From IMG/VR virus record IMGVR_UViG_2740892369_000044: a stretch of DNA of 38,716 bases; one strand, written 5' to 3'. Shown here piece after piece: positions 15,302 through 35,569 of this stretch (positions are counted from its first letter, which is position 1; each line of letters begins with the position of its first letter). A program made the translations under genes and the position numbers. The DNA comes from a virus (lineage: Duplodnaviria > Heunggongvirae > Uroviricota > Caudoviricetes). The notes under the pieces were generated by a model. That model was not told the DNA's origin. It saw only the letters and a list, made by a program, of their open reading frames with translations, and ran no database searches.

Positions 15302-15368
15302 TTACCTGAAAGGTAATAATTTGTGCGTTAAATGTCAACTATCTACGATAAATAAATCATATGTGGTT
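15302..15368 (+). promoter_or_regulatory. Late-promoter-like cassette upstream of the portal operon: TTACCTGAAAGGTAA site (about 15302-15316) and CATATGTGGTT box (about 15358-15368)
   Basis: Both elements read directly; first ATG at 15407. Confidence 0.55.
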
Positions 15369-15406
15369 AAATTGGTAATAATTTAATTGCGTACGGAGTC
15401 ATTGAT

Positions 15407-15613
15407 ATGTGCATGGGTAGTTCACCATCAGTGCCTGCAACACCAGAAGTTCAGGCAGCACCACAGGAGCAGGATGCCGCCGTTATTGATGCCCGCGACG
15501 AAGAAACTCGTCGCCGTCGCGCTGCTGCTGGTCGTAATTCTACGCTGCTTACCGGTTCTCAGGGCGACACATCAACCGCTAATACCAGCGGTAAAACGCT
15601 GCTTGGTCAGTAA
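15407..15613 (+). CDS. Hypothetical small protein, first gene of the head operon
   Basis: 68-aa ORF with GGAG ribosome-binding site; low-complexity sequence. Confidence 0.4.
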   Translation: MCMGSSPSVPATPEVQAAPQEQDAAVIDARDEETRRRRAAAGRNSTLLTGSQGDTSTANTSGKTLLGQ

Positions 15614-15627
15614 CCGGAGTCATTGAA

Positions 15628-17307
15628 ATGGCGGAAACAACTAAAGAGCGATTGAACAAACAGTTCGCACAACTTGAAAGCGAGCGTCAGTCGTTCGAGC
15701 CGCACTGGCGCGAGTTGAGTGATTACATCAACCCGCGTGGTTCCCGCTTTCTGACTTCTGAGGTCAACCGTAACGATCGACGCAATACACGCATTATTGA
15801 TTCGACCGGGACTATGGCGGCGCGCACTCTCGCCAGCGGCATGATGTCAGGCATCACAAGCCCCGCGCGTCCGTGGTTTCGCCTGGCTACGCCAGATCCT
15901 GAAATGATGGATTATGGCCCTGTTAAGTTGTGGCTTGAGGCGGTGCAGAACCGCATGAACGATATGTTCAATAAGTCGAATCTCTATCAGTCGCTGCCGC
16001 AGTTATACGGAAGCCTCGGCACATACAGCACCGGTGCAATGGCGGTACTGGAGGATGATGAGGACATCATTCGCACAATGCCATTCCCGATAGGCAGTTA
16101 CTACCTGGCTAACTCACCTCGTGGCAGTGTTGACACCTGTTTTCGCAAGTTCTCTATGACTGTTCGTCAGCTTGTTCAGGAGTTCGGGCTAAATAACGTC
16201 AGCGAATCCGTAAAAAGCATGTGGGAAAGCGGCACCTACGAGAAGTGGATTGACGTGATGCATTCGGTTTACCCGAACATTGACCGCGATACATCGAAGC
16301 TGGATAGCAAGAACAAGCCATTCAAATCGGTTTATTACGAGGTTGGTGGCGATAACGACAAGTTGTTGCGTGAGTCCGGATTCGATGAGTTTCCAATTAT
16401 GGCTCCGCGCTGGGAAGTTAATGGCGAAGATGTTTATGGATCATCATGCCCGGGTATGCTGGCGCTTGGACCTGTTAAGGCATTGCAGCTTCTCCAGAAG
16501 CGCAAGTCGCAGTTGATTGATAAAGCCACCAATCCGCCGATGGTTGCTCCGACTTCCCTCAAGAATCAGCGCGCCTCCCTTCTTCCTGGCGACATCACGT
16601 ATATCGATCAGATTACTGGTCAGGATGGCTTCAGGCCTGCTTATCTGGTTAACCCCAGTACAGCAGATTTGGTGGCAGACATTCAGGACACTCGTCAAAT
16701 CATTAACAGCGCCTACTTTGTCGATCTGTTCATGATGTTGCAGAACATCAATACCCGCTCGATGCCTGTTGAAGCGGTGATCGAAATGAAAGAAGAAAAA
16801 CTTCTGATGTTGGGGCCGGTTCTGGAGCGTCTGAACGACGAATGTCTTAATCCTCTCATTGACCGCGCTTTCTCGATGATGGTGCGTAAAAACATGCTGC
16901 CGCCACCGCCTGACGCGATGGAAGGTATGCCCCTGAAGGTCGAATACATTTCCGTCATGGCTCAGGCGCAGAAGTCTATCGGCCTGTCCAGTCTGGCGTC
17001 TACGGTCAACTTCATTGGTCAACTTGCGCAAGCGAAACCAGAAGCTCTCGACAAACTCAACGTTGATCAGGCGATCGATGCATTCGCTGATATGTCCGGA
17101 GTGTCTCCAACCGTCATTGTTCCGCAGGAACAGGTTGAGCAGGCTCGCCAGCAACGGGCACAGCAGCAACAGCAGCAACAAATGATGGCGATGGGAATGG
17201 CGGCGGCACAGGGCGCCAAGACGCTAAGCGAAGCTAAAACTTCGGATCCGAGTGTTTTGTCAGCTATGGCGAATGCAGTTAGTGGTCAGGGTGGGCAATC
17301 ACAATGA
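15628..17307 (+). CDS. Portal protein
   Basis: 559 aa; size, position after terminase and before scaffold/capsid, Gln-rich C-terminus; GGAG ribosome-binding site. Confidence 0.75.
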   Translation: MAETTKERLNKQFAQLESERQSFEPHWRELSDYINPRGSRFLTSEVNRNDRRNTRIIDSTGTMAARTLASGMMSGITSPARPWFRLATPDPEMMDYGPVKLWLEAVQNRMNDMFNKSNLYQSLPQLYGSLGTYSTGAMAVLEDDEDIIRTMPFPIGSYYLANSPRGSVDTCFRKFSMTVRQLVQEFGLNNVSESVKSMWESGTYEKWIDVMHSVYPNIDRDTSKLDSKNKPFKSVYYEVGGDNDKLLRESGFDEFPIMAPRWEVNGEDVYGSSCPGMLALGPVKALQLLQKRKSQLIDKATNPPMVAPTSLKNQRASLLPGDITYIDQITGQDGFRPAYLVNPSTADLVADIQDTRQIINSAYFVDLFMMLQNINTRSMPVEAVIEMKEEKLLMLGPVLERLNDECLNPLIDRAFSMMVRKNMLPPPPDAMEGMPLKVEYISVMAQAQKSIGLSSLASTVNFIGQLAQAKPEALDKLNVDQAIDAFADMSGVSPTVIVPQEQVEQARQQRAQQQQQQQMMAMGMAAAQGAKTLSEAKTSDPSVLSAMANAVSGQGGQSQ

Positions 17308-17600
17308 CAGATTACGAAGATGATCAACTGAAAGAAGAAAACGCCCGTAAGCAACGTGACATGGCACAGCGTGAAATTGATGACATTCGCTTTGTCATGA
17401 GCAGTGAACAGGGGCGTCGCGTTGTCTGGTCGGTGCTGGAGAAAGGCCGTGTGTTTTCCGCTATCTCACCGATGGACGCTATGGCAATGGCATTTAATGA
17501 GGGGCAACGCAATCTGGCGCTGGAACTGTTTCAGCGCGTTATGGCGCATTGCCCTGAACAGTATTTGAAGATGGCCAAAGAGGCCAGTGAACAGGAGTGA
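17304..17600 (+). CDS. Hypothetical head-assembly protein
   Basis: 98-aa ORF coupled between portal and scaffold. Confidence 0.5.
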   Translation: MTDYEDDQLKEENARKQRDMAQREIDDIRFVMSSEQGRRVVWSVLEKGRVFSAISPMDAMAMAFNEGQRNLALELFQRVMAHCPEQYLKMAKEASEQE

Positions 17601-18298
17601 TCATGAATTTATTTGAGCGTTTGCTGTATCGCCGTCTTTGCAATGAGCAACCAGTCGATGGTGGAGCAGCTCCGGCTGCGTCAGAACCGTCAGCGCCTGC
17701 AGGTGATAACCCTGCTCCAGTTGGTGATCCATCACAATCGGAAGGTGATAAGCCACAACCTGTTGCTGATGGCGATAAACCTGCTGATGACAAAAAGCCT
17801 GAAAACGATAAGCAGGATGAAAAAAAGGACGGCGATAAACCAGAGGGTGCGCCTGAGAAGTACGAGTTTCAGGCTGCCGAAGGCGTAGAGCTGGATACAG
17901 AAGCGTTGAAGGAATTCGAGCCGGTGGCGCGAGAACTTAACCTGACCAACGAGCAAGCGCAAAAGCTGGTTGATGCTTATCCGAAGATTCTGGCAGGTGT
18001 GCAGCAGCGCCAGGCAGAAGCCTGGCAGAAAACAACCGAGCAGTGGGCTGCTGATGTAAAAGCTGACAAAGAAATCGGTGGCGACAAGTTGATTTCTAAC
18101 CTTAGCGCCGCACAGCGTGCGCTTGACCAGTTCGGGACACCTGAACTCAAAGAATATCTGAACACCACCGGGCTGGGTAATCACCCTGATCTGGTCAAAA
18201 CGTTCGTGAAAATCGGAAAGGCGATGTCTGAAGATGGCATGGTCACCGGTGGTAATGAAGGCCAGCGTAGTGCGGCCGAAGTGCTCTATGGCAAATAA
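17597..18298 (+). CDS. Scaffolding protein
   Basis: 233 aa; acidic, Pro/Asp/Lys-rich N-terminal half then helical; directly upstream of the major capsid gene. Confidence 0.6.
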   Translation: MIMNLFERLLYRRLCNEQPVDGGAAPAASEPSAPAGDNPAPVGDPSQSEGDKPQPVADGDKPADDKKPENDKQDEKKDGDKPEGAPEKYEFQAAEGVELDTEALKEFEPVARELNLTNEQAQKLVDAYPKILAGVQQRQAEAWQKTTEQWAADVKADKEIGGDKLISNLSAAQRALDQFGTPELKEYLNTTGLGNHPDLVKTFVKIGKAMSEDGMVTGGNEGQRSAAEVLYGK

Positions 18299-18306
18299 GA
18301 GAGGAA

Positions 18307-34983: not shown

Positions 34984-34989
34984 TAAAAA

Positions 34990-35011
34990 AGAGAGGGAAA
35001 TATCCCTCTCT
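34990..35011 (-). terminator. Hairpin terminator between the tailspike stop and the gtrB stub; U-tract is on the minus strand
   Basis: AGAGAGGG-AAATAT-CCCTCTCT preceded on the plus strand by A6. Confidence 0.5.
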
Positions 35012-35015
35012 TACA

Positions 35016-35123
35016 TTAAATTACTTTATATGACTTCAATTCTTCGAATTCACGTACCGTTTTATAAAAAATTGGTATCGCTTCTTCTTCATTGAAGACA
35101 GGAACTACAAGAGATATCTTCAT
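35016..35123 (-). pseudogene. gtrB: Truncated gtrB (GT2 bactoprenol glucosyltransferase), only about 35 N-terminal codons
   Basis: Hand translation gives [32 protein letters not shown] then KVI-stop; ATG overlaps the gtrA stop as ATGA; the stub runs straight into the tailspike terminator. Confidence 0.6.
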
Positions 35124-35482
35124 TTCGCATCCCTAAAGACAATGAACTTTGAATAGACGAAACCGCACACCAGGCTTATGGCGGAGAAGATGACGAGAGT
35201 AACAAATGGTGGCAGACCGCACATGTCAGCAGCCCAGCCAACAACTGCGCTCATAGTGCCTATGAATCCAACGTAAAGCATGTATTTCAGCGTAGTAGTA
35301 GAGGCATTGAACGTAAATTTCGCGTTAGCGTAAAAACTGAACGATACAGCTATGACAAAACCAGCAAAGTTAGCAAGTACTTGATTTGTATGTATTACGT
35401 AAATACAGAAAGCAAACACAACCCAGTGTATGAGCGTGTTTAACACTCCGATTGACATGTATTTAGTGAACAGATGAAGCAC
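35120..35482 (-). CDS. gtrA: GtrA-family bactoprenol-glucose translocase (flippase)
   Basis: Closely matches GtrA from memory ([24 protein letters not shown]...[20 protein letters not shown]...[10 protein letters not shown]); GTG start at 35482 chosen by alignment, track start 35515 is also GTG. Confidence 0.8.
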
Positions 35483-35511
35483 TTTTTCCAGAAAAAATAA
35501 AAACAAATATA

Positions 35512-35569
35512 TCACCCTTTGGGTAATTTCGTTAAGAGCTATCTGAGTTTATTTAAACCATATGTGGTT
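35512..35569 (+). promoter_or_regulatory. Late-promoter-like cassette upstream of the lysis genes: TCACCCTTTGGGTAA (about 35512-35526) and CATATGTGGTT (about 35559-35569)
   Basis: Read directly; first lysis-gene ATG at 35619. Confidence 0.5.

Follow-up and report, generated by a model that had tools for sequence, protein, structure and literature searches.

A conserved palindromic box at the late operons of a phiV10/epsilon15-like prophage and its possible part in factor-dependent late promoters

The window analysed in this work (IMG/VR record IMGVR_UViG_2740892369_000044, Caudoviricetes, 38,716 nucleotides, taken over its whole length) contains three exact copies of an 11-mer, CATATGTGGTT, all on the + strand (positions 15358, 32287 and 35559) and each upstream of one late operon, namely portal/head, tailspike and lysis. 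Sequence comparisons support the view that each of these operons has its own conserved promoter-like module, composed of a palindromic box that includes the 11-mer and of a -10 hexamer, without a -35 element. Our tentative interpretation, which we hold at slightly less than even confidence, is that these modules are factor-dependent late promoters with an architecture like that of the late promoters of phage P1. Neither the phiV10 nor the epsilon15 record has an annotation for the box, and it was not found in the literature that could be searched (a lead from work on the prophages of E. coli LF82 concerned a P22-like phage and was rejected). As far as could be checked the box is undescribed, while the inverted repeat that often accompanies it is known biology.

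Phages phiV10 and ZX5 share 98.5% nucleotide identity with the window over 5 kb of the head region, and the gene order of the window is the same as in phiV10 and epsilon15; judged by identity and synteny, the window is a phiV10/epsilon15-like prophage of the genus Uetakevirus. A burst size of ~700 is reported for ZX5 (PMC9782041).

The preliminary description of this DNA had proposed that the three copies of the 11-mer are not a product of chance, and this was borne out: 0.02 copies are expected, and none of 100 dinucleotide shuffles reached three. Between the 11-mer and the first ATG lie 38, 64 and 49 nt at the portal, tailspike and lysis sites, respectively, in agreement with the proposed range of 38-75 bp; the operons open with a small gene at 15407 that precedes portal, with the tailspike gene at 32362 and with the membrane protein/holin/endolysin genes at 35619. 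The 11-mer forms the right part of an imperfect 14-bp palindrome, AACCA-TATA-TGGTT (consensus AACCATATATGGTT); phiV10 and Tyrion have a perfect version of it at their lysis sites, while the lysis copy of the window (AACCA-TATG-TGGTT, 35556-35569) is one central base short of perfection. Searches for the 14-mer with up to 3 mismatches returned 6-9 matches per related genome, mostly in intergenic control regions, vs 1.3-2.2 in shuffled sequences. The same search found no match in Pectobacterium phage ZF40, even at 3 mismatches, and only three matches in Psychrobacter phage pOW20-A, each with 3 mismatches and thus at the level of chance. The elements recognized at the three late sites are:

15302..15316: repressor operator TTACCTGAAAGGTAA, 52.5 bp centre-to-centre upstream of box 1, orthologous to epsilon15 2931-2947
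15355..15368, + strand: box 1, AATCATATGTGGTT, upstream of the portal/head operon, containing the exact 11-mer (15358-15368) and kept in all relatives examined
15374..15384, + strand: GGTAA (a repressor-type half-site) followed by TAATTT, a -10-like hexamer 10 bp after box 1
32243..32257: repressor operator TCACCTGAAAGGTAA, between a divergent antirepressor-like gene and the tailspike gene, orthologous to epsilon15 19895-19911
32284..32297, + strand: box 2, ATCCATATGTGGTT, upstream of the tailspike gene (32362-34983)
32303..32313, + strand: GGTAA (invariant) followed by TAGAAT, a -10 hexamer 10 bp after box 2
35512..35526: repressor operator TCACCCTTTGGGTAA, within the spacer of a promoter-like site on the minus strand, directed towards a gtrA-like conversion gene (35120-35515)
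35556..35569, + strand: box 3, AACCATATGTGGTT, upstream of the lysis operon starting at 35619, kept in 59 distinct relatives
35577..35582, + strand: TATGAT, a -10-like hexamer 7 bp after box 3

Footprints of conservation were derived from 59 distinct sequences from 80 viral contigs for the lysis site, from 61 distinct sequences for the tailspike site, and from eight phage genomes and 13 genome loci for the portal site. At the lysis site the box, a TATTGTG segment and a TATGAT/TATAAT/CATGAT/CATAAT hexamer are kept, while the DNA upstream cannot be aligned. The tailspike footprint comprises the operator, a 29-nt variable spacer without insertions or deletions, a (nearly) invariant CATAT..GGTT, 5 variable nucleotides, an invariant GGTAA and a hexamer that reads TAGAAT, TACAAT, TAAAAT or TATAAT; the hexamer varies at its third position only, which is the pattern of variation expected of a -10 element. 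At the portal site the box is kept together with a TAnnnT frame 10 bp downstream (TAATTT, TAACTT, TATTTT), and this conservation reaches as far as Rahnella relatives with 67% identity in the portal protein. With a simple sigma-70 scan, none of the three late sites yielded a + strand pair of -35 and -10 elements; the same scan recovers the early-left (TTGACA-17-AATTAT) and early-right promoters. Counted from the inferred -10 hexamers rather than from mapped transcription starts, the box extends from about -36 to -23 in the portal and tailspike modules and from -33 to -20 in the lysis module, with the centre of the palindrome at about -26.5 to -29.5.

Structural genes normally need a stronger promoter than one that offers TAnnnT alone, with neither a -35 element nor a TG extension. 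From the arrangement of the conserved elements we infer that transcription starts at the late modules, that a protein binds to the box, and that its binding activates the promoter. According to this scheme, the sigma-70 RNA polymerase of the host could not use the late promoters efficiently by itself, and a dimeric, probably phage-encoded factor bound to the box would replace the recognition of a -35 element. Portal/head, tailspike and lysis genes would then constitute separate but co-regulated late transcription units. The repressor operators nearby would be a separate and optional layer, which keeps neighbouring promoters silent in the lysogen.

Among known systems, the box promoters are best filed with the dispersed, palindrome-marked late promoters without a -35 element of the P1 type. 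Like those predicted in the window, the P1 late promoters are several and dispersed, with a -10 but no -35 element. They have a short palindrome at -20 to -30, a region to which the box of the window, as counted from the inferred -10 hexamers, would roughly correspond; the annotated LPhot promoter, for instance, consists of a 9-bp palindrome (AAGTTACTT), 9 nt, and AATAAT, with no -35. P1 also has repressor operators scattered over its genome. However, the P1 box is unrelated in sequence and is only 9 bp long, compared to 14 bp here, and in the window the palindrome is reused in early promoters and is geometrically coupled to repressor operators. The P1 activator Lpa has no evident homolog either (tblastn of Lpa against the window, best E-value 2.9). 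A possible second parallel is provided by the middle promoters of phage T4, in which a MotA box at -30 replaces the -35 element in front of a normal -10, as the box would do in the window; the TGGTTTA of the window differs by one base from the MotA core TGCTTTA. The box of the window is nonetheless closer to the -10 element than the MotA box and, unlike it, palindromic.

It could be argued that the box is bound by a host protein, or that it is a structural feature of promoters used by the polymerase alone. In favour of this view, no phage factor could be assigned to the box, and conservation of the motif extends over hosts as different as Escherichia and Rahnella. However, a comparison by eye with the E. 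coli consensus sites of CRP, FNR, IHF, Fis and DnaA revealed no convincing match, a DnaA-like CCACA is not conserved in the relatives, and a -10 hexamer with neither a -35 element nor a TG extension is normally very weak. We consider a host factor or a purely structural role improbable.

It is still less probable, to the point of being hardly credible, that the box acts in RNA, as a part of an RNase III site or of a hairpin that controls translation from the leaders. At the lysis leader epsilon15 has an annotated RNase III site (24755-24817), and a conserved stem can form there: in the window (35574-35616), GUGUAUGA, which is the -10 region, can pair with an upstream AUG (UUAUGCAC; UUAUGCGC), and ten sequences of a single clade have a compensatory change in one of the pairs. 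The stem, however, uses the -10 region and not the box, which by itself gives only a 3-bp hairpin; the box is a DNA palindrome in both orientations and lies upstream of the -35 element at the promoter of the 6690 gene, and no comparable stem is found at the portal site. Since the 5' arm lies upstream of the predicted transcription start, the lysis-leader stem would form only in read-through transcripts, in which it may silence the lysis genes.

The box had been taken as the mark of a late promoter class, but it is not specific to late operons, because the 6690 gene has a good copy at its promoter, and relatives have good copies in the spacers of the early-left promoter and of the promoter at 8599. 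In or beside these early and middle promoters it always stands in register with half-sites of the repressor. It thus looks like a second regulatory site rather than a late-specific one. The early, middle and other sites in the window are:

5436..5512, - strand: early-left promoter TTGACA-17-AATTAT (5478 to 5450) with operators at 5436-5450 and 5498-5512
6595..6655, + strand: operator 6595-6609, box AACCAAATCTGGTT (6615-6628) and putative promoter TTGATC-17-CAAAAT (6627-6655)
8542..8618, + strand: operators 8542-8556 and 8604-8618 flanking the putative promoter TTGATT-17-TTTAAT (8576-8604)
9006-9014: perfect DnaA-box match TGTGGATAA, directly upstream of the gene at 9028
31905..31918, + strand: degenerate box TTCTTTATGTGGTT, where the minus-strand antirepressor-like gene (31909-32184) has its 3' end

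The module at 6595..6655 follows the cro terminator and precedes the 6690 gene and the replication genes; its box overlaps the -35 element of a conserved TTGATC-16/17-(C/T)AAAAT promoter, with the centre at about -40.5, and every relative examined has this box and the same arrangement. Degenerate copies lie at 5456-5469 in the early-left spacer, where the ortholog in Tyrion is near-perfect, and at 8585-8598 in the spacer of the 8576-8604 promoter, upstream of the gene at 8622; the latter promoter has a weak -10 and is not called by the sigma-70 scan. In Tyrion and Klebsiella prophages boxes lie within the 17-bp spacers of both promoters, with centres at about -19.5 to -21.5. At the 31905-31918 site the relatives have AACCTTATCTGGTT or AACCTTATGTGGTT adjoining a GGTAAT half-site, and the match is better in phiV10 and Tyrion. 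Of the close variants listed in the preliminary description, those at 8588 (CTTATGTGGTT) and 31908 (TTTATGTGGTT) are orthologous to good boxes in relatives, while the one at 9003 (TTATGTGGATAA) lacks GGTT and comprises the DnaA-box match instead.

In the scheme of factor-dependent late promoters, a factor bound to the box within the spacers of the early promoters would shut these promoters off, while over the -35 element of the replication-gene promoter it could help or hinder. Late activation and early shut-off together would produce the early-to-late switch.

Two proteins had been put forward by position as regulators that read the box:

6690..6890, + strand: 66-aa zinc-ribbon protein (PHROG 1081)
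11340..11678, + strand: 112-aa conserved cysteine-rich protein (PHROG 536), encoded by the last gene before the small terminase gene

The product of 11340-11678 occupies the typical place of a late regulator in front of the terminase genes, is conserved in every relative, and carries the label "transcriptional regulator" in PHROGs; the names in its cluster are all "hypothetical", and sequence and profile searches of Pfam, NCBIfam and the PDB returned no match. However, its stop codon is embedded in another palindrome, GTGACATGTCAC (perfect, 12 bp; 3 matches in the window vs 0.1 expected), with copies at 11675-11686 and 31874-31885, a one-mismatch copy at 17356, and a further habit of lying directly before the terminators at operon ends. 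Copies of this type are also found in other genomes compared (L001, 2263 and 19494; L003, 26723; L006, 5126, 7623 and 14945; L190, 8467). The corresponding TGTGAC(AT/GC)GTCACA is present at the stop codon of the homologous genes in three unrelated types of phages, i.e. in the podovirus genus, in the myovirus ZF40 (67% identity), which has no box, and in a P2-like Yersinia phage (41% identity), which possesses an Ogr-type regulator of its own. Gene and palindrome therefore appear to travel together as a module, and the protein was rejected as the box binder, as it goes with the GTGAC..GTCAC palindrome. The copy at 11675 can also be read as a promoter-like GTGACA-18-CATGAT followed by a terminator. 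In the Providencia relative the operator, the box and the p55-linked palindrome are absent together, and Sodalis phiSG1, a degraded mosaic, is also without the box.

The best-conserved of the early boxes stands immediately in front of the 6690 gene, but the zinc ribbon encoded there recurs widely as the N-terminus of larger proteins encoded in operons of lytic phages, with no box near these homologs; it is a widespread nuclease-associated domain, and it was likewise rejected as the box binder. Altogether, we find it very improbable that either of these proteins acts on the box as a late activator. The PerC-like protein (2559-2858) is the only product of a conserved gene that belongs to a family named as activators, and it shows no link to the box.

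The inverted repeat TYACC-N5-GGTAA, which the preliminary description had included in the signature of the late promoters, has 33 strand matches in the window vs 2.7 expected; about 16 sites cluster in the immunity region. In the epsilon15 record this repeat is marked as "protein_bind: repressor" both within the immunity region and in front of the operons for terminase, portal and tailspike, and the operators at 15302 and 32243 align with the annotated epsilon15 sites. The repeat is, on these grounds, the operator of a prophage repressor of the epsilon15/SPC32H type (ATTACC-N5-GGTAAT), and it has to be removed from the late-promoter signature, as it is missing at about half of the lysis promoters. 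While all 80 tailspike loci have the same operator, 28 of the 65 distinct lysis loci lack a canonical operator within 90 bp of the box; hence the operator is dispensable there, and upstream of the -10 only the box is universal. An operator is present at 26 of the 31 lysis loci in which the nearest upstream gene is divergent, compared to 11 of the 34 with a co-directional one (Fisher p = 4e-5). By this association, the lysis-site operator largely belongs to the neighbouring divergent promoter, and box and -10 form the universal module. The box itself is not a canonical operator, as it combines AACC/GGTT with N6 where the operators have TACC/GGTA with N5, and it is unannotated in epsilon15.

A further observation concerns the operator at 15302-15316. 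In all relatives TGTCAA (TTGACA on the minus strand; 15333-15338 in the window) lies exactly 16 nt from it, even where the spacer to the box is 11 bp shorter, which suggests a leftward repressor-controlled promoter, TTGACA-17-TACCTT, for the minus-strand genes between terminase and portal.

The main proteins and the regulatory site of the immunity system are:

5570..6154, - strand: prophage repressor with two helix-turn-helix domains, a homolog of the SPC32H repressor Rep
6309..6539, + strand: Cro-like helix-turn-helix protein, encoded by the first gene of the rightward early transcript
32188-32203: LexA box (consensus), CTGTATAAATATACAG, upstream of the minus-strand antirepressor-like gene 31909-32184

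The repressor matches the SPC32H repressor structure (PDB 5D50) with E = 4e-42, and repressor, operators and LexA box all correspond to the SPC32H/epsilon15 immunity system. The gene at 31909-32184, with its LexA box, is presumably the counterpart of the LexA-controlled antirepressor of SPC32H-type phages. No relative with a different immunity type was found among the relatives compared.

The SPC32H repressor binds its palindromic sites as a tetramer, with pairs of domains formed across dimers (PMC9638917; PDB 5D50). It is conceivable, therefore, that one domain pair of the repressor occupies TTACC-N5-GGTAA and the other the box, either 2 turns or, with a loop, ~4-5 turns away, so that the box would be an auxiliary non-canonical operator of the tetrameric repressor, or possibly of the Cro-like protein, which serves repression and not activation. 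Lying across the core promoter, the box would lock it together with a canonical operator in phase. We regard this main alternative as unlikely but as one to be taken seriously, since it is supported by the geometry of the sites. The operator and the 11-mer start 56, 44 and 47 bp apart at the portal, tailspike and lysis sites, so that the range of 45-56 bp given in the preliminary description was about right, but the supposed fixed distance was not. Measured between centres, the distances are 52.5 bp (portal), 40.5 bp (tailspike) and 43.5 bp (lysis), 19.5 bp at each of three other promoters (6690, early-left and 8599), and 42.5 bp from the second operator to the box at the latter two.

Several of these features weigh against a dedicated activator and for a repressor-linked role. 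The distances fall into two groups, one of 19.5 bp (three sites) and one of about 42 bp (four sites between 40.5 and 43.5 bp), with 52.5 bp at the portal, which suggests a physical coupling of box and operator, and in the Rahnella relatives the portal spacer is shortened by 11 bp, i.e. by one helical turn. The AACC/GGTT half-sites of the box resemble TACC/GGTA and join with them in WACC/GGTW arrays with a period of 9-10 bp, exemplified by TACC-9-GGTA-10-AACC-10-GGTT at the 6690 promoter and by the invariant GGTA that lies 9 bp after the GGTT of the box at the portal and tailspike promoters. A GGTAA half-site lies 4-5 nt from the box at nearly every site, the second operator upstream of the terminase genes ends with GGTTA, and conservation of the box is highest at the sites whose operator, at -60 to -80, is too distant to block the polymerase. 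The centre of the box is variable (about -19.5 to -21.5 at the early-left and 8599 promoters, -26.5 at the lysis, -29.5 at the portal and tailspike, and -40.5 at the 6690 promoter), which fits a repressor site better than an activator site, and box and -10 are 10 bp apart for portal and tailspike but 7 bp apart for lysis. Finally, no activator was found: Lpa has no homolog in it, and the likeliest candidate by position is linked to another palindrome.

On the other hand, the half-site of the box always has A where the operators have T or C, its spacer is N6 and not N5, and in about 120 distinct sequences GGTT is never replaced by the consensus GGTA. The lysis promoters without an operator retain the box, some of them (L010) without even a half-site, and the role of an auxiliary operator would not account for strong late expression from promoters that have no -35 element.

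The same alternative is also opposed by phage pOW20-A (L090), a very different phage with a peptidase-type repressor. The Cro-like protein is confined to this genus and to pOW20-A, in which its homolog (53% identity) is located in the cro position, while the N-terminal domain of the pOW20-A repressor CI is 40% identical to that of the window. The cI-cro region of pOW20-A (9644-9710) contains three TACC-N5-GGTA operators but no box. As the homologous proteins are accompanied there by the same operators and no box, both immunity proteins most likely read the canonical operator, and the Cro-like protein, which the presence of two helix-turn-helix proteins and two palindromes had suggested as the default box binder, is weakened in this role. 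Given the homology of the CI N-terminal domain and of Cro, the window and pOW20-A have, as judged by these comparisons, an immunity recognition cassette in common.

A more inclusive alternative, which we consider distinctly unlikely, is that the box and the canonical operator are two dialects of one WACC...GGTW code read by the immunity proteins, such that a single cassette sets the temporal programme. In one version, the repressor tetramer would bridge the operator and a box at a distance of 2, 4 or 5 helical turns and thereby lock the late promoters that lack a -35 element. In another version the Cro-like protein, as the first product made after derepression, would use the box to turn the early promoters off and the late promoters on. 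If the box were read by the repressor or by the Cro-like protein, this would explain the operator that lies too far upstream to block the polymerase.

Compared to lambda, the likeness is limited to a regulator-like gene right before the terminase genes, followed by GTGACA-18-CATGAT and a terminator. In contrast to lambda, the portal, tailspike and lysis genes of the window each have their own promoter module and are separated by genes of opposite orientation, and no terminator intervenes between the box and the genes at the three late sites; members of the Q family were not detected among the ten candidate proteins scanned. The suggestion that the late promoters form a class unlike the single PR' promoter of lambda can thus be retained as far as the three modules of box and -10 without a -35 are concerned, but not as a class marked by a late-only box.

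A side observation concerns the replication-initiator gene (6906-7721), which contains direct repeats of CCAAAAACGGGA units with a spacing of 18-24 bp (7160-7312); they look like the iterons of an origin.

As prophages, phages of the epsilon15/phiV10 type are frequent in E. coli, Salmonella and Klebsiella; they have genes for O-antigen conversion and serve as reporter phages. The repressor-antirepressor switch of epsilon15/phiV10 has been solved structurally, while the timing of their late genes, as far as our literature search showed, has not been. If the code read by the immunity proteins were true, no dedicated late regulator would be needed. A conserved box at every late promoter provides an experimental handle on late timing, as it specifies the promoters, the bases within them, and a bait for the factor.

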